Of a stretch of 64,000 bases of DNA, positions 55,764 to 62,695 are shown piece by piece. Numbering within the stretch: position 1 is the stretch's first letter; each line of letters begins with the position of its first letter. The position numbers were made by a program, and so were the translations under genes. Under the pieces are notes generated by a model that was not told the DNA's origin, searched no databases, and worked only from the letters and a program-made list of their open reading frames with translations. Origin of the DNA: Deltaproteobacteria bacterium (GTDB taxonomy: Bacteria; Myxococcota_A; UBA9160; UBA4427); contig JAJDAN010000011.1 in the NCBI GenBank assembly GCA_029261855.1, forward strand, positions 140,646-204,645. The letters run 5' to 3'.

Positions 55764-56177
55764 CTAGTCCGCGGATCCATCTCCGCCGGGCCACAGGGGC
55801 CAGCCCGGGTTTGCGTCGCCGCCGATCTGTCGCGCGCCGATCACGACGTCGTCGCGCGACACGTCGATCAAGATGCTGTCGAGCTCGGTCTGGAGGCTTC
55901 CGATCCGGAACGGCGACAGCAGGATCGAGACGCCGACACCGAGCCCCTGCGTCCGGGCGTGGCTGTAGATCAGCACCTGACTGCCGTCGCGTCGCTGGTG
56001 GACCGCATGGGGCGGCCCGACGGCGCGGTAGAGCTCGTCTCGGGTCGTGATCCCAGGCTCGACGGCGAAGCGGCTCGTCGGCATCCCCTGGTCGACGCTG
56101 GTACAGCCCGTAGCGGCGGCGACGAGCAGCCAGAGAAGCGCCGTGACGGACAGCGTACTGCGCGACCCGGCCGTCAT
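55764..56177 (-). CDS. BamE/SmpA-OmlA-like lipoprotein, paralogue 3
   Basis: ORF 55764..56177. Lipobox AATGC. Motifs VEPGITTRDELYRAVGPP, LIDVSRDDVV and C-terminal GWPLWPGGD. Confidence 0.65.
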   Translation of the reverse strand: MTAGSRSTLSVTALLWLLVAAATGCTSVDQGMPTSRFAVEPGITTRDELYRAVGPPHAVHQRRDGSQVLIYSHARTQGLGVGVSILLSPFRIGSLQTELDSILIDVSRDDVVIGARQIGGDANPGWPLWPGGDGSAD

Positions 56178-56668
56178 GGCAGGCTCACTCCCGGCACCGA
56201 GGTCGTCTGCACGCGCACCTTCCGCTCGTCGCCACTGCTCCAGGGTCGCCAGACGACCTGGGTCGTTCCCTTCGAGACCCGCTCGACCACGCCTGCGTCG
56301 TCGAACTCGATCACGAGCACGTAGCTCGGCTGGTCGTCACACCAACGGAATGGAATCAACGGAGCCACGGGCACCGGCGCGCCTTCGATGGGCGCAGCCG
56401 CGAGGAACGAGGTGCAGCGCATCTCGCGACTCACGTAGCGGAGGGTGCCGCTCGAAAGCTGGAACTCCTTCGGGTCGGCGGGCTGGAGAAGCGCGAGGGT
56501 GTCACTGGGAGCGGGCGGCCCCCAGGTCGTGATGACGTCCAGCAGGGTCGTCTCGCCGACGACGATGCGCGACGAGTCGAGGTCGCGGACGTGGGCGTTC
56601 GTCACCGTCTTCGAGTAGATGCATCCCGAGCACGCGAGCGCGAGCAGCAGTCCGGCGAGCCACCGCAT
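56174..56668 (-). CDS. BamE/SmpA-OmlA-like lipoprotein, paralogue 2
   Basis: ORF 56174..56668. Lipobox LACSGC. Motifs IVVGETTLLDVITTWGPP, VIEFDDAGVVERV and VWRPWSSGD. It has a 4-nt overlap with paralogue 3. Confidence 0.65.
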   Translation of the reverse strand: MRWLAGLLLALACSGCIYSKTVTNAHVRDLDSSRIVVGETTLLDVITTWGPPAPSDTLALLQPADPKEFQLSSGTLRYVSREMRCTSFLAAAPIEGAPVPVAPLIPFRWCDDQPSYVLVIEFDDAGVVERVSKGTTQVVWRPWSSGDERKVRVQTTSVPGVSLP

Positions 56669-56671
56669 CGG

Positions 56672-57121
56672 TCACTCGCCCCCGAACGGCCAGAACTGCC
56701 AGGGAAGATCCTTCGAGTTGGTCCCGTGGATGACCTCCTGCACGACCCCGTTGCGGTCGGCCACGAAGATCGCGGTGTCGATGCCGGTGTTCGTCTTCTG
56801 AAAATTCAAGAAGATCATCCCGAGCATCCAGGTCTTCGAATCACCGTAGCTGTAGACGTAGCCTTCCTTGTCCGGCGGCACCGGCACGATGCCGGAGGGC
56901 GCGGTGCCCAGGATGGCCGTCAGCTCCTCGACCCGGGTCTCGCCGGGTCGGACCCGAGAGATCCTCGTATAGGGGTTCTCGACGTTGATCCGGTGCCTCT
57001 GCATCGAGCATCCGGTGAACGCGGGAACGAGCAGCGCCGTTCCGATCAAACCAACGAGCGCTGCGCGAACGCCTCGAATCGACATTCGAGTTGGCGTTCG
57101 AGTCGAAAAACGAGTCGACAT
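56672..57121 (-). CDS. BamE/SmpA-OmlA-like lipoprotein, paralogue 1
   Basis: ORF 56672..57136. Preferred ATG at 57121, with GGGAGGGGGG upstream. Lipobox AFTGC. Motifs VRPGETRVEELTAILGTAP, IFVADRNGVVQEV and PWQFWPFGGE. Confidence 0.65.
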   Translation of the reverse strand: MSTRFSTRTPTRMSIRGVRAALVGLIGTALLVPAFTGCSMQRHRINVENPYTRISRVRPGETRVEELTAILGTAPSGIVPVPPDKEGYVYSYGDSKTWMLGMIFLNFQKTNTGIDTAIFVADRNGVVQEVIHGTNSKDLPWQFWPFGGE

Positions 57122-57249
57122 GGGCCCCCCTCCCAATCCAACCGAGCAGCCTCGACCCGGAACCGTGCTTCGGCAGCCTAGCAGCGATCCTCCGCAGCAG
57201 TGGCGCGACCTGCATTCAACCCGCAGATCCGACCGACCGAAACAGCTGC

Positions 57250-57999
57250 GTGACCAACCGAGACCGTTGCCTGCAGGAAAGCCGCCGGCGTCGCCGCGCG
57301 GCCACCCGAAGCCTGATCCCGGCCCTGCTCGCGGGCTTGCTGGCGTGCGCCGCTCCGCCGCCGGCGCCAGTCCCCGGGCGCAGCGCGGCCTGGGGCTTCA
57401 TCACACTGGTTCCGCACCAGGGCGCTCCCCGCACTGCCAGCGGCGGCTACGGCGACCGTCGCATGCGGGACGTCGAGCTCGTCGACTATTCCCGGCCGGG
57501 CTTCGTGGTCGTATACGTCGAGGGCGTCGACTCCGCGGAAGGGTCCGACGCCTTGCTGACGATCCGAGACGGCGCGATCGGACCCCGCCTCGAGCCGACG
57601 CATGCCGCGCTCTCGGCGACGGGGACGCTGACGCTGCACAACGACGACGAGCGTCCGCACCTCGTGTCGTGTCCCGCCGCCGACACGGTCTTCTCTCTCG
57701 CGCCCGGCGAGACGCGCAAGATCGAGCTCACCCGGTCCGGCGAGTACCCCCTCTTCCTGATCGACGTACCGGGTGTATCGAGCCTGGTCTTCGTCGCGCC
57801 CGGCACGTACAGCGTGGTGTCCGCGAGCGGACGCTTCGAGCTCGCCGACCTTCCGCCGGGTCGACATCGACTTGGCGCCTGGCACCCGCGTCTCCCCTCC
57901 GCCTTCCGCTGGATCGATCTCGATGCAGACGGGGTGCTGCGCGTCGATGTGGAAGTCGGTGTCGACGTCGGCCCAAAGGGCGCCTCCAATGCACTCTGA
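57250..57999 (+). CDS. Lipoprotein with a degenerate (ligand-less) cupredoxin-like domain plus a CarboxypepD_reg-like domain
   Basis: GTG 57250 in frame within ORF 57091..57999. Arg-rich signal with lipobox LLAC. Paralogous to the product of 59359..59994, but the C-x2-H-x2-M block is replaced by LFLIDVPGVSS. Confidence 0.65.
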   Translation: MTNRDRCLQESRRRRRAATRSLIPALLAGLLACAAPPPAPVPGRSAAWGFITLVPHQGAPRTASGGYGDRRMRDVELVDYSRPGFVVVYVEGVDSAEGSDALLTIRDGAIGPRLEPTHAALSATGTLTLHNDDERPHLVSCPAADTVFSLAPGETRKIELTRSGEYPLFLIDVPGVSSLVFVAPGTYSVVSASGRFELADLPPGRHRLGAWHPRLPSAFRWIDLDADGVLRVDVEVGVDVGPKGASNAL

Positions 58000-59359
58000 C
58001 GCACGCGTCTGGATCGCCGCACTGCTTGCCCAGTCGGTGTTCGCGGGCGCTGCCCTTGCGACAGATCCCGACCCGCGGATCGAGGACCTCGAGCGGCGCA
58101 TCGAAGAGCTCGAGGCGAAGCAGGACGGCGCCGAGGCGCGGCCCGCCACCGAGACGACCCCGGACGCCGAAACCCCGACCTTGCTCGACGCGCTGCCCGC
58201 CTGGGCCCAACGCGTTCGGCTCGGGGGAAGTGCGAATACCGGCTGGTACGGTGGCGAGCAGAACAGCGTCTTCCACGACGAGCACTTCCAGGTGTGGGAT
58301 GCCCGCTTCTTCATCGACGCCGAGCTCGGCGAGGACGTCCGGATCGGCGACCAGACCCTCTTCCGAAACGTCGGCTTCAGCTTCGAGTGGGACCTGGTGC
58401 GACTCGGCGACCTGATGAACGACGTCGGCGAGTTGTACACCGAATTCCAGGGCATCGCGGGCTCTTCCTGGGGCAATCTGCAGGTCGGGCGCTTCGAGAT
58501 CCCGGTCGGCGAGAGCTATCTGCTCTACAGCCGCGGCTACGCCGACAACCCGTTCATCACCAACGTCGTCGGAGGTCCCTGGTTCTGGGACGAAGGCGTG
58601 CGGATCTACGGGTCCGACCCGAGCGATCGCTTCGGCTATGTGGCGTCCGTCGCCGACGGCGAGACGAGCTTCGACAGCGACCTGAACAGCGACTACCAGT
58701 ACACGCTGAAGCTCTTCGCGAACCCGACGCATTGGCTTCACGTGAGCGCCAGCGGTCTCTACACGGGGAAGATCGGATCGCGTTCTTCGGCGGGTAGTGG
58801 CGGTGCGCTGTGGCTGGGGGAGGCCTGGGCCCGCGCCTTCGGCAGTGGGACCTCGGTGCCGAACTACCAGGACGGTGTCCTGGTCGCCGACGGGCCAAAT
58901 CGCATCGAGGAGACCAATCTGCTCGGTGCCGACGTGATCGTGAGCTTTCCCGGGAAGACGCGGATCTGGCTCGGCTACGGCAGCTACGCGATCGACCAGA
59001 ACGGCGGCGGCTACGATCGCCGTCTGCACTACTGGGTGGCCGAGCTCCTCTTGTACGGCGGCTTGATCTCGCCCCGGCTCGACGACGTCTACACCGGCTT
59101 CCGCGCCCACGGACTCGGCACCTACGACCGCGACAAGGGCTACCTGCTGGACTCGCGACGCGCCGAGACACTCGGCTACAACATGAAGTCGATCAACGCA
59201 TACTCCTTCGTGCTGGGTTGGAAGATGCTGCGCTTCGTGACCCTCCGCGCCGAGTACACCCACCGCGACATCGATCTGGTCCGGGGCGCAAAGGCGTCCC
59301 TCGGTGGTGAGGCAGACGACGTCGACTCCTGGGGAGTCGAGGTGGGAATCCAGTTCTAG
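57989..59359 (+). CDS. Outer-membrane porin-like beta-barrel with an N-terminal coiled coil
   Basis: ATG 57989 in frame within ORF 57773..59359. Signal peptide. Coiled coil RIEDLERRIEELEAKQ. Alternating beta-strand pattern. C-terminal WGVEVGIQF. Confidence 0.7.
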   Translation: MHSDARVWIAALLAQSVFAGAALATDPDPRIEDLERRIEELEAKQDGAEARPATETTPDAETPTLLDALPAWAQRVRLGGSANTGWYGGEQNSVFHDEHFQVWDARFFIDAELGEDVRIGDQTLFRNVGFSFEWDLVRLGDLMNDVGELYTEFQGIAGSSWGNLQVGRFEIPVGESYLLYSRGYADNPFITNVVGGPWFWDEGVRIYGSDPSDRFGYVASVADGETSFDSDLNSDYQYTLKLFANPTHWLHVSASGLYTGKIGSRSSAGSGGALWLGEAWARAFGSGTSVPNYQDGVLVADGPNRIEETNLLGADVIVSFPGKTRIWLGYGSYAIDQNGGGYDRRLHYWVAELLLYGGLISPRLDDVYTGFRAHGLGTYDRDKGYLLDSRRAETLGYNMKSINAYSFVLGWKMLRFVTLRAEYTHRDIDLVRGAKASLGGEADDVDSWGVEVGIQF

Positions 59360-59994
59360 TGCGACGCGCGCCGATCGTCCCCGCTGCGCTCCTGGCCCTC
59401 GCCTTCCTGCTCGGGTTCGCTGGCCCGGGCCGAGCGGAGGCGCCTGGTGTGGTCAGCGGCGTGGTGGCGCGCGACCTCGGCGAACCGGCGCTCTCGGGCC
59501 TCGGGCCGATCGTGGTCTACCTGGAGCCACTGGAGCCGGAACCGGGCAGTGCCGAACCCGCACCACCCGTCCAGATCGCACAGAAGAACGCGCGCTTCGC
59601 ACCCAGCTTCCAGGTCGTGACCGTCGGCCAGCGCGTCGAGATGCCCAACAGCGACGCGATCTACCACAACGTCTTCTCGTTCTCGAAACCCAACGACTTC
59701 GACCTGGGCCTGTACGCCGCCGGAGAGTCGCGCGAGGTCGTGTTCGAGCACGCCGGGGTCGTGAAGACCTACTGCTCCATCCACGAGAGCATGAACGGCA
59801 CGATCCTGGTGGTACCGACGCGACACTTCGCGCGCGCCGACGGAAAAGGCCACTTCCGAATCGAGGGCGTTCCGCCGGGGCGCTACCAGCTGTGGGTGTG
59901 GTGCGAGAAGCTGCCACTGAGGAGTCGCCCGCTCACCGTCGCGGCAGGCACCTCGCAGCTCTTGTCGCTCCAGCTCATTCCACCGCCGGCTTGA
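59359..59994 (+). CDS. Secreted type-1 copper (cupredoxin) protein with a CarboxypepD_reg-like domain
   Basis: ORF 59359..59994. Its GTG shares 1 nt with the upstream TAG. Signal peptide present. Full T1Cu ligand set: IYHNVFS and YCSIHESM (C-x2-H-x2-M, amicyanin-like spacing). Confidence 0.75.
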   Translation: MRRAPIVPAALLALAFLLGFAGPGRAEAPGVVSGVVARDLGEPALSGLGPIVVYLEPLEPEPGSAEPAPPVQIAQKNARFAPSFQVVTVGQRVEMPNSDAIYHNVFSFSKPNDFDLGLYAAGESREVVFEHAGVVKTYCSIHESMNGTILVVPTRHFARADGKGHFRIEGVPPGRYQLWVWCEKLPLRSRPLTVAAGTSQLLSLQLIPPPA

Positions 59995-62695
59995 GCAGCT
60001 CCGGGGCGAGGTAACGTTCGGCGGCGACCTCCGCGGGCGCGGGCCGTCCGAAGTAGAAGCCCTGGATCTCGTCGCACTTCCAGGACGCGAGCAGACGGCA
60101 CTGCTCTTCGGTCTCGACGCCCTCGGCGATGATGTGCAGCCCCAGGGCCTTCCCCATGGAGATGATCGATGCCGTCAGAGCCGCGTCGCCCTCGCTGTCT
60201 GCAATGCCCGAGACGAAGCTGCGGTCGATCTTGAGGGTGTCCACGGGGAGTCGGCGCAGGTAGGCGAACGACGAGTAACCGGTCCCGAAATCGTCGATGT
60301 GAATGCGGATCCCGCGCTCCCGCAGGATCTCGAGATCCCGCACGACGGCGTCCTCGTCGTGCATCAGCGTACTCTCGGTGATCTCGAGCTCGAGCAGCGC
60401 CGGATCCGCTCCGCTGTCTTCGAGCATGCCCAGGATCCGACCTGGGAGCCGACCGCCGCGGAACTGATGCACGGACAGGTTGACCGAGATCGGGATGGCA
60501 TGACCCTTGTCGTTCCAGGCAACGGCCTGACGACAGGCCTCGCGCAGCACCCAATCGCCGAGGGGCGCGATCAGCCCGGTCTCCTCCGCGATGGGGATGA
60601 AGACCCCGGGCGGAACGAGACCGGCTTCCGGGTCGCGCCACCGCACGAGTGCTTCGAAGCCCTTGAGTCGTCCGGACGGCACCTCGACCTTGGGTTGGTA
60701 GTGCAGCTCGAACTCATCCTCTTCGAGACCCCGACGGAGCTTGTTCTCGAGGATCAGGCGGCGCATGGCCACCTCATTCATCGTCTCGGCATAGAACTGG
60801 TAGTTGTTCCGGCCCTGGTCCTTGGCGTGGTACATGGCCGCGTCCGCATTGCGCAGGAGTACTTCGACGTCGTCGCCGTCGAAGGGGAAGGCCGTGATGC
60901 CGATGCTGCCGGAGATCACGACCTCGTGTCCATCGAGGTCGAAGGGTTGGACGAGACCCGCGAGGATGCGGCGCGCGACCTTTGCGAGGTCCTGGACGTC
61001 AGGCACGGAGACGACCACGGTGAACTCGTCGCCACCCAGGCGCGAGATCGAGTCGGCCAGATCGCCGCGCGCGATGAAATCGCTCTGCCGGACGGTGGCA
61101 ACGAGGCGGTCTGCGACGCCCTTCAAGAGCTCGTCGCCGTGGGAATGGCCGAGCGTGTCGTTGATGCGCTTGAAGCGGTCGAGATCGAGGAACAGGACAC
61201 CGAGGATCTGGTCGCTCCGCTTCGCCTGGGCGAGCTGGATGGCGAGGCGCTCCTGGCAGAGCATCCGGTTGCCGAGGCCCGTCAGACTGTCGTGATAGGC
61301 GAGGTAGCGGATCTGCTCTTCCGAACGCTTCCGCTCGGTGACGTCCTGGATCGTGCCCTCGAGATGCCCCGGATGACCGTCCACGCCGGGGCGCACGCCG
61401 GCCTGCAGATGGAGGACCCGCTCGGGCGCGTCGCGCAGCGAGATCCTGCAGTCGAGCCGCACGGTCGAGCGCTCGCGCATGCAGCTCTCGAGCGCGCTGC
61501 GCAGGCCGTCCCGGTCGTCCGGGTGAACGGCCGAGAAGGCGCTTCGCGGCTCCACGGGCTTGTCGCCCTTCACCAGACCGAAGATCGAGCAGAACTCCTC
61601 GGAACCCTCGAGGTCCCCCGTCGCGAGGTCGACCCGCCAGCTTCCGATGTGCGCCAGGCGCTGGGCACGCGCCAACTGCTCCTCGCTCTCCTTGAGCATC
61701 TCGACGCTACTCGCGAGTTCCTGGTGCTGGTTCTCGACCTGGGACCGGTAGGCCCGGAGGCGACCGAGCATGGCATCGAATGCCCTCGCCACGTCGCCGA
61801 TCTCGTCGCCGCGATCGCTTTCGAGGCGCTGCTCGAAGTCGCCATCTCCGATGCGCTCGCTCGCGTGCTGGATCGCGAGGATCGGGCGGACGACCCCGCG
61901 AGAGACCAGCAGACTGACCGCGAACGCCAGGGCGAGGGCGACGGCGCCGGCGATCAACAGGTTGTAGCGGGAATGTGCCAGGGCATCGCGCTCGGGTTCG
62001 AGAGAGATCGCGACACGCAAGTCGACGTTGCCGAGCCGCCGCACCACCCGATCGACCGCATCCGGTGCACCCCGACCCGACGTCGCGAACACGACCTGTG
62101 CGCCGGTCAGCTCCGACCACTGCTCGAGCAGGGCCGGCGTCACGCGCTCCGCCGCGAGCAGGCGACCCACCACGTGCGACGCGGTTCGCAGCGGGATCGA
62201 GACCACGCCCCAGACCTCGTCGCCTTCGCCGACCAGGTCCGCTTCGTGGACGGAGAGCATCTGCCCGGTGAGCGCCTCGGCGCCCGCCGCTGCCAGGGGG
62301 CGGCCGTCCGGCGCCAGGAACGCGACGAGACCGCCGTCGCTCTTGTCGGCCAATTCCCGAGCGAAGAACTGCAGGGTCGGACCGTCGCCGACCTGCAGGG
62401 TTGCCCGGAACTGCGGCGTCCCGGAGATGGCGGCGTAGCGGTCCACCAGGGATGCCAGGTGGTTCGCGACCAGCAGATCCGCGGCCCGGGCCGCGGCCTC
62501 GGCGCGCACCTGAGCTCCACTCCGGAGATCGCCGGACAGCGCCCGGTCCTGAAGCAACAGCGCGAGCACGGTCGAGAAGGCCGCCATCGCCGAGAGAATC
62601 AGCAGCAGCCGGACCGACAGCTTGAAACGGTGCGGACGGATCAAATTCCGAGAGCCCTCAACTCCTTGTCGGTGAAGGGCTTTTCGGAGACACAC
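59975..62695 (-). CDS. Membrane c-di-GMP signalling protein (sensor domain-HAMP-PAS-GGDEF-EAL)
   Basis: ORF 59975..62695 (GTG; start uncertain). Motifs RLGGDEFTVVV, FELHYQPKV and FEALVRW. HAMP and PAS segments present. Confidence 0.9.
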   Translation of the reverse strand: MCLRKALHRQGVEGSRNLIRPHRFKLSVRLLLILSAMAAFSTVLALLLQDRALSGDLRSGAQVRAEAAARAADLLVANHLASLVDRYAAISGTPQFRATLQVGDGPTLQFFARELADKSDGGLVAFLAPDGRPLAAAGAEALTGQMLSVHEADLVGEGDEVWGVVSIPLRTASHVVGRLLAAERVTPALLEQWSELTGAQVVFATSGRGAPDAVDRVVRRLGNVDLRVAISLEPERDALAHSRYNLLIAGAVALALAFAVSLLVSRGVVRPILAIQHASERIGDGDFEQRLESDRGDEIGDVARAFDAMLGRLRAYRSQVENQHQELASSVEMLKESEEQLARAQRLAHIGSWRVDLATGDLEGSEEFCSIFGLVKGDKPVEPRSAFSAVHPDDRDGLRSALESCMRERSTVRLDCRISLRDAPERVLHLQAGVRPGVDGHPGHLEGTIQDVTERKRSEEQIRYLAYHDSLTGLGNRMLCQERLAIQLAQAKRSDQILGVLFLDLDRFKRINDTLGHSHGDELLKGVADRLVATVRQSDFIARGDLADSISRLGGDEFTVVVSVPDVQDLAKVARRILAGLVQPFDLDGHEVVISGSIGITAFPFDGDDVEVLLRNADAAMYHAKDQGRNNYQFYAETMNEVAMRRLILENKLRRGLEEDEFELHYQPKVEVPSGRLKGFEALVRWRDPEAGLVPPGVFIPIAEETGLIAPLGDWVLREACRQAVAWNDKGHAIPISVNLSVHQFRGGRLPGRILGMLEDSGADPALLELEITESTLMHDEDAVVRDLEILRERGIRIHIDDFGTGYSSFAYLRRLPVDTLKIDRSFVSGIADSEGDAALTASIISMGKALGLHIIAEGVETEEQCRLLASWKCDEIQGFYFGRPAPAEVAAERYLAPELLKPAVE

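Follow-up and report, generated by a model that had tools for sequence, protein, structure and literature searches.

A porin, a predicted blue-copper protein, its ligand-less paralogue and an adjacent sensor: a candidate envelope-spanning sensory input module in Myxococcota

Here, we describe a group of four adjacent genes in a 64,000-nucleotide (nt) stretch of DNA, referred to below as the window, from a Deltaproteobacteria bacterium of the GTDB lineage Myxococcota_A (GenBank assembly GCA_029261855.1, contig JAJDAN010000011.1, positions 140,646 to 204,645 of the forward strand). Three plus-strand genes encode a lipoprotein (g1), an outer-membrane porin (g2) and a cupredoxin with a predicted blue-copper site (g3), and a fourth, convergent gene encodes a predicted inner-membrane sensor (Table 1). 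The sensor gene was absent from a preliminary description of this DNA, which had recognised the three-gene operon and proposed that it might be a copper-based analogue of a porin-cytochrome module. The operon itself, with its coordinates and overlaps, is confirmed: g1 (stop at 57999) and g2 (ATG at 57989) share 11 nt (ATGcactcTGA), the last G of the g2 TAG is also the first base of the g3 GTG (taGTG, an overlap of 1 nt), and the 3' ends of g3 and the sensor gene overlap by 20 nt (59975-59994). An independent gene caller made identical calls for g1, g2 and g3 (249, 456 and 211 amino acids) on a public contig of near-identical sequence (L001), where it also called the sensor gene. The NCBI protein of g3 (P0001, 181 amino acids) begins 30 codons after the GTG at 59359 and is therefore without the signal peptide (59359-59451); the longer form is supported, because its start is kept in 94% of the family alignment and overlaps g2 by 1 nt. 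A scan for promoters and terminators gave nothing over shuffled expectation. The GC content of the window is ~68%. Close relatives of its genes occur in metagenome-assembled genomes (MAGs) from soil that are labelled Myxococcota or 'delta proteobacterium', and all 35 related genome loci are from uncultured organisms.

Table 1. Features of the locus and of the more distant cytochrome gene pair (positions in the window)
Feature	Position	Strand	Remarks
g1 lipoprotein	57250-57999	+	GTG start, 249 amino acids
Lipobox Cys33 (LLA-C) of g1	57346-57348	+	Cys then Ala, invariant in 18 aligned family members
g2 porin	57989-59359	+	ATG start, 456 amino acids, C-terminus ...GIQF
Coiled-coil helix of g2, amino acids 29-49	58073-58135	+	DSSP on model; R37 and E42 invariant in family
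PWFWDEG motif of g2, amino acids 197-203	58577-58597	+	Long loop between strands 5 and 6
g3 cupredoxin	59359-59994	+	GTG start, 211 amino acids
Copper ligand His103 of g3 (NSDAIYHNVFS, then Asn104)	59665-59667	+	121-sequence alignment
Ligand loop Cys139-x2-His142-x2-Met145 of g3 (YCSIHESM)	59773-59793	+	121-sequence alignment
Sensor gene, convergent	59975-62644	-	889 amino acids, HAMP-PAS-GGDEF-EAL
Periplasmic sensor domain, ~amino acids 36-228	61961-62539	-	dCache_3-related
GGDEF (amino acids 449-614, Pfam E 9e-45) and EAL (amino acids 634-868, E 1e-73)	60041-61300	-	Motifs intact
Decahaem MtrA-like cytochrome (10 CxxCH) and Cys-free beta-rich protein of ~720 amino acids	30784-33970	+	Second protein without Pfam match

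The product of g3 is composed of a signal peptide, a cupredoxin domain and a beta-sandwich resembling CarboxypepD_reg. Its AlphaFold2 model (predicted local distance difference test, pLDDT, 92) is matched by Foldseek at probability 1.00 to the cupredoxin domain of NirK and to amicyanin, plastocyanin and pseudoazurin, the last three with a root-mean-square deviation of 1.8-3 Å across 84-100 residues; Foldseek also matches it to the Nitrosopumilus cupredoxin 5fc9. A complete set of blue-copper ligands had been reported for this protein, and it holds across the family: H103, N104, C139, H142 and M145 are invariant in 121/121 close homologues, the copper ligands are kept in relatives from Alpha-, Beta- and Gammaproteobacteria, and the pattern His...Cys-x2-His-x2-Met is kept in 130 of the 150 best family representatives (50% identity clusters). 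The Cys-x2-His-x2-Met spacing is what we take to be the short amicyanin type. In a phmmer search of the PDB, the first His, the Cys and the second His align with both 5fc9 and 9cck, and the Met has a counterpart in 9cck alone. Against the Pfam family PF00127 (Copper-bind), g3 scores 20.3 bits at a cut-off of 21.2, several of its homologues carrying a precomputed match to this family, and against the NCBIfam amicyanin and plastocyanin models it scores far under the cut-offs. With an amicyanin-like predicted fold and an invariant ligand set, g3 looks like a genuine type-1 copper protein.

The family of g3 is large, with 732 close homologues and, in an exhaustive phmmer search, 4,346 representatives (50% clusters) at E <= 1e-10. 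Relatives in Caballeronia, Burkholderia and Comamonas are named 'methylamine utilization protein' or 'plastocyanin' in RefSeq, and close homologues are named plastocyanin at JGI. Methylamine utilization was rejected as a function of g3, as the label is derived from similarity and no methylamine dehydrogenase (mau) genes lie near the relatives. Six family members (P0270, P0275, P0277, P0283, P0290 and P0307) are proteins of 730-1154 amino acids in which a cupredoxin unit with its Cys-x2-His-x2-Met loop is repeated 5-8 times in tandem; they could be poly-blue-copper 'wires'.

The first gene, g1, encodes a paralogue of g3 with an Arg-rich N-terminus and the lipobox LLAC; the invariance of Cys33 in the aligned family bears out its earlier description as a lipoprotein, and from this lipobox the protein may be tethered to the outer membrane. 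The lipobox is followed by a ligand-less cupredoxin-like domain and a CarboxypepD_reg-like beta-sandwich, and g1 gives weak Pfam matches to Cupredoxin_1 and CarboxypepD_reg. The latter match has an E-value of 4e-4, and that of g3 to the same family 7e-6; both are under the Pfam cut-off, which homologues pass, in agreement with the tails proposed for the two proteins in the preliminary description. The paralogy also suggested there is supported by BLASTP (E 3e-9, 23% identity, 138 residues aligned) and by a joint family alignment, in which the copper-site Cys, second His and Met are absent from the g1 family and roughly half of its members keep the first His; the only Cys or Met conserved in the g1 family is the lipobox Cys. 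Some g3-family proteins consist of two cupredoxin-sandwich units on one chain with copper ligands in one unit only. In P0265, P0276, P0315 and P0353 the ligand-less unit is N-terminal, as in the order g1 then g3, and in P0248 it comes second and is nearer to g1 than to g3. The existence of such fusions suggests that a degenerate and a competent unit work together as a g1-g3 pair, and g1 and g3 may thus associate.

The AlphaFold2 model of g2 (35-sequence alignment, pLDDT 85.5) has a signal helix, a helix at residues 29-49, a barrel of ~16 strands and a terminal Phe, and it agrees with the C-terminal sequence in upholding the earlier description of an outer-membrane barrel with an N-terminal coiled coil. 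Residues W198, W200, D201, E202 and G203 are invariant in the 35 sequences; they belong to the PWFWDEG loop, which in the model sits between strands E163-170 and E200-209 and, judging from general porin architecture, is probably the loop that constricts the pore. The top Foldseek match in the PDB is OprP (2o4v, E 1.9e-12, template-modelling score 0.52/0.58), followed by chitoporin, OmpT, PorB, OmpM1, Omp32 and DcaP, all of them 16-strand trimeric porins; fold assignments throughout this work were made by Foldseek only. On its model, g2 is therefore an ordinary 16-strand porin of the OprP/chitoporin/DcaP class, and DcaP has an N-terminal periplasmic coiled coil, as does g2. Neither Pfam, NCBIfam nor the sequences of PDB chains gave a sequence match to g2, which has more than 348 homologues. 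Membership of the OprO/OprP phosphate-selective porins (PF07396) was rejected, as there is no match at E <= 1; a relative at locus L043, which shares 28% identity with g2, stays under the threshold in its match to Porin_O_P (E 0.0039, 16.9 bits; cut-off 20.9). In contrast to OprP and OprO, with which it shares the 16-strand fold, g2 has no significant PF07396 or PDB sequence match, and its family lies beside g3 in all evaluable loci but one. The protein contains no cysteine and therefore no haem c site, which also led us to reject a Cyc2-type fused cytochrome-porin as its identity, and no CxxCH motif occurs in g1, g2 or g3.

The sensor is predicted to span the inner membrane with two transmembrane (TM) segments and has the order TM, periplasmic domain, TM, HAMP, PAS, GGDEF, EAL. 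Pfam matches HAMP (amino acids 246-298, after the second hydrophobic segment), PAS_3, GGDEF and EAL, and the GGDEF, EAL and DDFGTGYSS motifs are intact in the translation. Its N-terminal 290 amino acids (TM-periplasmic-TM-HAMP) are 47% identical to a chemoreceptor encoded at the related locus L003, the remainder of the two proteins being unrelated, and by Pfam the one sensor domain is found with three output classes, namely GGDEF-EAL, MCP chemoreceptor and hybrid histidine kinase (HisKA-HATPase-REC). The periplasmic domain carries the conserved motif RYRAISGTPQxRAxLEV. An hhalign comparison of 27 Myxococcota sensor N-termini with three dCache_3-bearing sensors, which are encoded beside g3-like genes in Caballeronia, Comamonas and an Omnitrophota MAG, gave a probability of 99.4 and an E-value of 5e-21 over 293 columns, TM and HAMP segments included. 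A word-indexed protein search with the N-terminal 283 amino acids returned no matches, low-complexity Ala/Leu words having probably swamped the candidates. At four related loci (L019, L020 and L029 on the minus strand and L017 on the plus strand) the sensor domain is carried by a hybrid kinase of ~1000 amino acids (HisKA-HATPase-REC-REC-Hpt) that is followed by a separate GGDEF-EAL gene, an arrangement that suggests a phosphorelay to the turnover of cyclic di-GMP (c-di-GMP) in place of the fused form of the window.

The association of these four genes is conserved. Around each of six barrel homologues the genes g1-g2-g3 are present, followed directly by a gene for a large HAMP-containing membrane protein in one of two forms: the form of the window, in which a convergent gene for a HAMP-PAS-GGDEF-EAL protein of ~890 amino acids overlaps the 3' end of g3, or a co-directional gene for a HAMP-MCPsignal protein of 746 amino acids with a 4-nt overlap with the g3 stop codon (L003 and L007). 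A genome-wide scan with a barrel profile yielded 35 further loci, throughout which the order g1-g2-g3-sensor was held by tblastn. Where at least 1.2 kb of sequence past g3 was available, and with duplicates removed, the sensor adjoins g3 in 33/33 loci with a g2-type barrel and g3. These comprise 13 convergent GGDEF-EAL sensors, four convergent GGDEF-EAL genes with a hybrid kinase, and 16 co-directional sensors, the last made up of seven chemoreceptors, six hybrid kinases, two GGDEF-EAL proteins with a chemoreceptor or kinase match and one protein without a recognised output. Upstream of the barrel, g1 is present in 30/32 evaluable loci, and g3 lies beside the barrel in every related locus with enough downstream sequence except L021, so the three genes are syntenic well beyond the window. 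Two of the circumstances named in the preliminary description as telling against its reading do not apply: synteny of the three genes elsewhere is strong, and a barrel free of cupredoxins is seen only at L021. At L040 (6001-10638, on a 3-Mb contig) each of the three genes for barrel, cupredoxin and sensor is broken across frames, and this copy of the module is either decaying or hit by long-read indel errors. At L005/L006 (1520-7298) genes for a FecR-domain protein and a Ser/Thr kinase of 1514 amino acids with TPR repeats lie directly upstream of g1 on the same strand.

A test that does not depend on the porin was provided by 120 metagenome loci picked by a degenerate DNA pattern for N-x-D-x3-HNVFS-x-S-x4-FDLG alone. 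Open reading frame (ORF) calling in these loci was crude (longest ORF) and some neighbours are probably mis-called. By Pfam, the 62 ORFs directly downstream of the cupredoxin gene include matches to HAMP (22), dCache_3 (17), HisKA (11), Pkinase (11) and HD_5 (HD-GYP-type, seven), and also to guanylate cyclase, MCP and SpoIIE. A sensor topology, defined by hydropathy as 'TM, 190-330 amino acids, TM', is found in 36/52 downstream genes of at least 300 amino acids, compared with 8/177 other long ORFs of the same loci (odds ratio 48, Fisher p = 7e-22). The 60 upstream ORFs include 11 members of a family ending in QLVFWF, four g2-type porins with the coiled coil, four BBP2-like barrels, five dihaem cytochrome c peroxidases and four tandem g3-like genes. 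The QLVFWF proteins (~410 amino acids, with a signal peptide, a conserved QLVFWF C-terminus and no Pfam match) are probably outer-membrane barrels; this family (A10) was rejected as a homologue of g2, the hhalign probability being 18%. It lies upstream of g3-like genes in L053, L057, L060, L071, L076, L151 and L168, and histidine kinases follow those g3-like genes. Redox-flavoured neighbours of the g3 family are a periplasmic truncated haemoglobin, dihaem peroxidases and c-type cytochromes. Families of copper homeostasis (CopA/CusCBA/CopC/CopD/multicopper-oxidase, HMA) are missing from the 25 commonest neighbour families of the 120 loci, whether upstream or downstream, and the +-8-10 kb around the module in the examined relatives revealed none.

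More distant relatives carry simpler versions of the arrangement. In one Omnitrophota and one Gammaproteobacteria MAG, the gene for a barrel that is 28% identical to g2 precedes a g3-like gene, after which comes a sensor gene, and g1 is missing from both loci; the sensor of the Omnitrophota MAG scores dCache_3. A tblastn search of plasmids retrieved g3 relatives labelled 'methylamine utilization protein', and in Caballeronia, Burkholderia, Comamonas and Novosphingobium the g3 relative is directly followed by a dCache_3-HAMP-GGDEF-EAL protein. Most of these proteobacterial loci also carry a DUF3034 protein, which is probably an outer-membrane barrel because it has a signal peptide and a C-terminal ...QAGF, and a group-1 truncated haemoglobin, which is taken to be periplasmic because of its signal peptide; a Sec-type signal on a haem b globin is unusual in itself. 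This counterpart operon (DUF3034, truncated haemoglobin, cupredoxin and sensor) is found at L044 (5467-9770), L047 (3258-7755), L048 (3467-7794) and L050 (3428-5820), on replicons of Caballeronia, Burkholderia and Novosphingobium. A remote g3-like gene on S. meliloti pSymA adjoins a gene for an SCO copper chaperone and cbb3 oxidase genes. Since non-orthologous barrels (g2-type, QLVFWF, BBP2-like and DUF3034) sit upstream of the cupredoxin gene, an outer-membrane channel appears to be functionally required, and the recurrent design has three parts in order: a barrel of the outer membrane, from whichever family; a predicted type-1 copper cupredoxin carrying a beta-sandwich; and a two-TM sensor, whatever its output.

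We put at slightly better than even the chance that the four genes constitute an envelope-spanning sensory input module, with the blue-copper protein as a periplasmic co-sensor, and not a three-gene conduit. In the proposed model, the porin would let a small stimulus through the outer membrane, and soluble g3, probably paired with its tethered ligand-less paralogue g1, would serve as the co-sensor. The state of its copper site (oxidised versus reduced, or loaded versus empty) would be read by the dCache_3-related domain of the adjacent sensor, with which g3 may be in physical contact, and the signal would pass via HAMP to the output, which would be c-di-GMP synthesis or breakdown in the window (PAS-GGDEF-EAL) and a chemoreceptor or hybrid histidine kinase in the sister genomes. 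An invariant two-TM sensor with a swappable output points to signal perception and not to bulk transfer of electrons or copper; of the trans-outer-membrane electron or copper handling suggested in the preliminary description, we therefore drop bulk transfer and retain redox or copper only as a stimulus that is sensed. Between these two, a redox state or oxidant is the somewhat more probable stimulus, because the neighbours include haemoglobin, peroxidases and cytochromes and the most frequent ones include no copper-homeostasis family; copper availability is kept in consideration because of the SCO chaperone gene beside the S. meliloti relative. In the boldest version of the model, which we regard as possible but doubtful, the blue-copper protein would be a signalling device and not an electron carrier: an oxidant or reductant entering via the channel would set the state of the copper, a Cache-type domain would read it, and varied outputs would follow.

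Several points weigh against this sensory interpretation, which draws wholly on genomic association and predicted structures. The periplasmic domain of the window sensor has no significant direct match in Pfam and that of L005 has only a 'faint' match to dCache_3, and the sensor gene of the window is convergent and is not co-transcribed with g1-g3. At L021 (483-2027), a 4-kb contig, a barrel homologue of 48% identity occurs and both cupredoxin genes are absent. About a third of the motif-selected metagenome loci have no recognisable sensor downstream, and some g3-family members adjoin peroxidases, cytochromes or an SCO protein, and for these reasons the g3 family is not exclusively sensory. 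In addition, the structure of a type-1 copper site hardly differs between redox states or between the loaded and empty forms, a genuine difficulty for any model in which a partner protein reads that state.

Two rival explanations leave the cupredoxin in a more conventional role. The module could serve copper trafficking or homeostasis, with the porin admitting or releasing copper, g3 as a chaperone or buffer, g1 as an adaptor, and a sensor that regulates the system, is co-regulated with it or senses copper directly. The ligands of g3 predict a complete, high-affinity copper site, its relative on pSymA lies beside SCO and cbb3 oxidase genes, and cupredoxin-fold copper chaperones exist, such as AccA of Neisseria; however, the copper-homeostasis families are missing from the top 25 neighbours of the 120 loci and from the surroundings of the module in relatives, g3 co-varies with a sensor domain of many outputs, an atypical partner in a metal-resistance operon, and the neighbouring haemoglobin, peroxidase and cytochrome genes speak for redox chemistry, so that we consider this explanation unlikely. 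It is similarly improbable, in our view, that g3 is an ordinary periplasmic electron carrier that, like pseudoazurin or amicyanin, shuttles electrons between redox enzymes, with the porin supplying a substrate and the sensor adjacent because it regulates the pathway. Although the fold and ligand loop of g3 resemble those of amicyanin and pseudoazurin, and some family members lie beside dihaem cytochrome c peroxidases (5/60 upstream ORFs) or c-type cytochromes, the Myxococcota module has no conserved oxidoreductase, and the only invariant partners there are the porin, the ligand-less paralogue and the sensor. An extra beta-sandwich and a tethered paralogue would also be unusual for a freely diffusing carrier, and the translational coupling of the g3 and sensor genes in L003 and L007 suggests a stoichiometric g3-sensor complex, which likewise counts against a carrier.

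The proposal with which the locus was originally described, a copper-based analogue of a porin-cytochrome conduit in which a cupredoxin in or on the barrel would pass electrons or copper over the outer membrane, now appears very improbable. What speaks for it is that the gene for a redox-capable cupredoxin overlaps the porin gene in a widely syntenic triad, that a decahaem cytochrome and a large barrel-like gene are present in the same window, and that Cyc2/rusticyanin of the iron oxidisers offers a loose precedent. The MtrCAB, PioAB and Pcc conduits likewise have an outer-membrane barrel gene adjoining a gene for a periplasmic redox protein, but their barrels have 20-26 strands, and MtrB is a 26-strand barrel sheathing MtrA. 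With 16 strands, g2 is too small to sheath a cupredoxin in the manner of MtrB; it belongs by its model to the general-porin class with an internal loop and lacks Cys, haem motifs are absent from g1-g3, no extracellular redox or other surface partner is present, and the invariant partner is instead a signalling protein. Cyc2 and rusticyanin of the Fe(II) oxidisers resemble the locus in combining a small porin-class barrel with a periplasmic blue-copper protein; Cyc2, however, has an N-terminal CxxCH haem, whereas g2 has no Cys and the module has no cytochrome or oxidase genes. A conduit would also leave the invariant sensor and the interchangeable barrels unexplained.

The MtrAB-like conduit that had been placed 20 kb away does exist as a gene pair for a decahaem cytochrome and a large Cys-free protein, which is plausibly a porin-cytochrome pair in its own right, but its distance from the module is ~23 kb. 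Cytochrome b, ACT-domain, CoA-transferase, histidine-kinase and ketoacyl-synthase genes lie in between, there are no cytochrome genes within +-8-10 kb of the module in L002-L007, and a functional link between the pair and the module was rejected for lack of synteny. Divergent from g1, three consecutive small genes (55764-57136, minus strand; 137, 164 and 154 amino acids) each encode a lipoprotein-type signal (...AATGC, ...ACSGC and ...AFTGC); they are kept in L001, and a luciferase-like gene takes their place in L002, the closest relative.

The closest working analogy for the favoured sensory module is provided by LuxP-LuxQ, TorT-TorS and ChvE-VirA, in which a soluble periplasmic accessory protein is encoded beside, and is often translationally coupled with, a two-TM sensor with a PAS/Cache-like domain; the position of the accessory gene next to the sensor gene is also conserved here (33/33 loci). 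The accessory proteins of those systems have periplasmic-binding-protein folds and bind small ligands, whereas g3 is a cupredoxin with a beta-sandwich, a metalloprotein of the electron-transfer class, whose contact with the sensor is presumed, and the module described here adds a tethered degenerate paralogue and a dedicated outer-membrane barrel. The comparison is thus one of 'works like' and not of membership. Amicyanin, plastocyanin and pseudoazurin (PF00127) share with g3 the fold, the His-Asn...Cys-x2-His-x2-Met pattern with its short loop and the periplasmic site; unlike them, g3 has the extra CarboxypepD_reg-like beta-sandwich and a copper site that is predicted, and its neighbours are a porin and a sensor and not a dehydrogenase, nitrite reductase or photosystem. 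Neither a cupredoxin-sensor pairing nor DUF3034 nor this operon was found described in a literature search, many subscription papers lying outside it, so that prior work is possible. The parts are of known kinds (a porin, a blue-copper protein and a Cache sensor), and sensing assisted by accessory proteins is known, as in LuxPQ and TorTS; a copper site as the sensing element would be the more radical novelty.

Only a few sensor types are understood by which bacteria detect redox conditions, oxidants and metals in the periplasm or outside the cell, and most Cache-type domains have no known stimulus. The locus shows three recurrent layers, an outer-membrane barrel, a type-1 copper protein and a two-TM sensor, in which the barrel varies across at least four families without detected mutual similarity and the sensor carries at least seven types of output. 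If the association proves merely regulatory, the finding shrinks to an uncharacterised periplasmic cupredoxin operon. If, on the other hand, the cupredoxin is the subunit that reads the stimulus, it would represent a new use of a much-studied metalloprotein fold and would help to reveal what many chemoreceptors, kinases and c-di-GMP enzymes respond to. A direct test is feasible, as the simpler version of the module (DUF3034, haemoglobin, cupredoxin and GGDEF-EAL sensor) is present in culturable Caballeronia, Burkholderia, Novosphingobium and Comamonas. Should the copper protein indeed act as a signalling device, 'cupredoxin-coupled' redox sensors of the envelope would form a large family whose members, numbering in the thousands, are spread over Myxococcota, Proteobacteria and other phyla and whose outputs include c-di-GMP, chemotaxis, phosphorelay, Ser/Thr-kinase and HD-GYP signalling.

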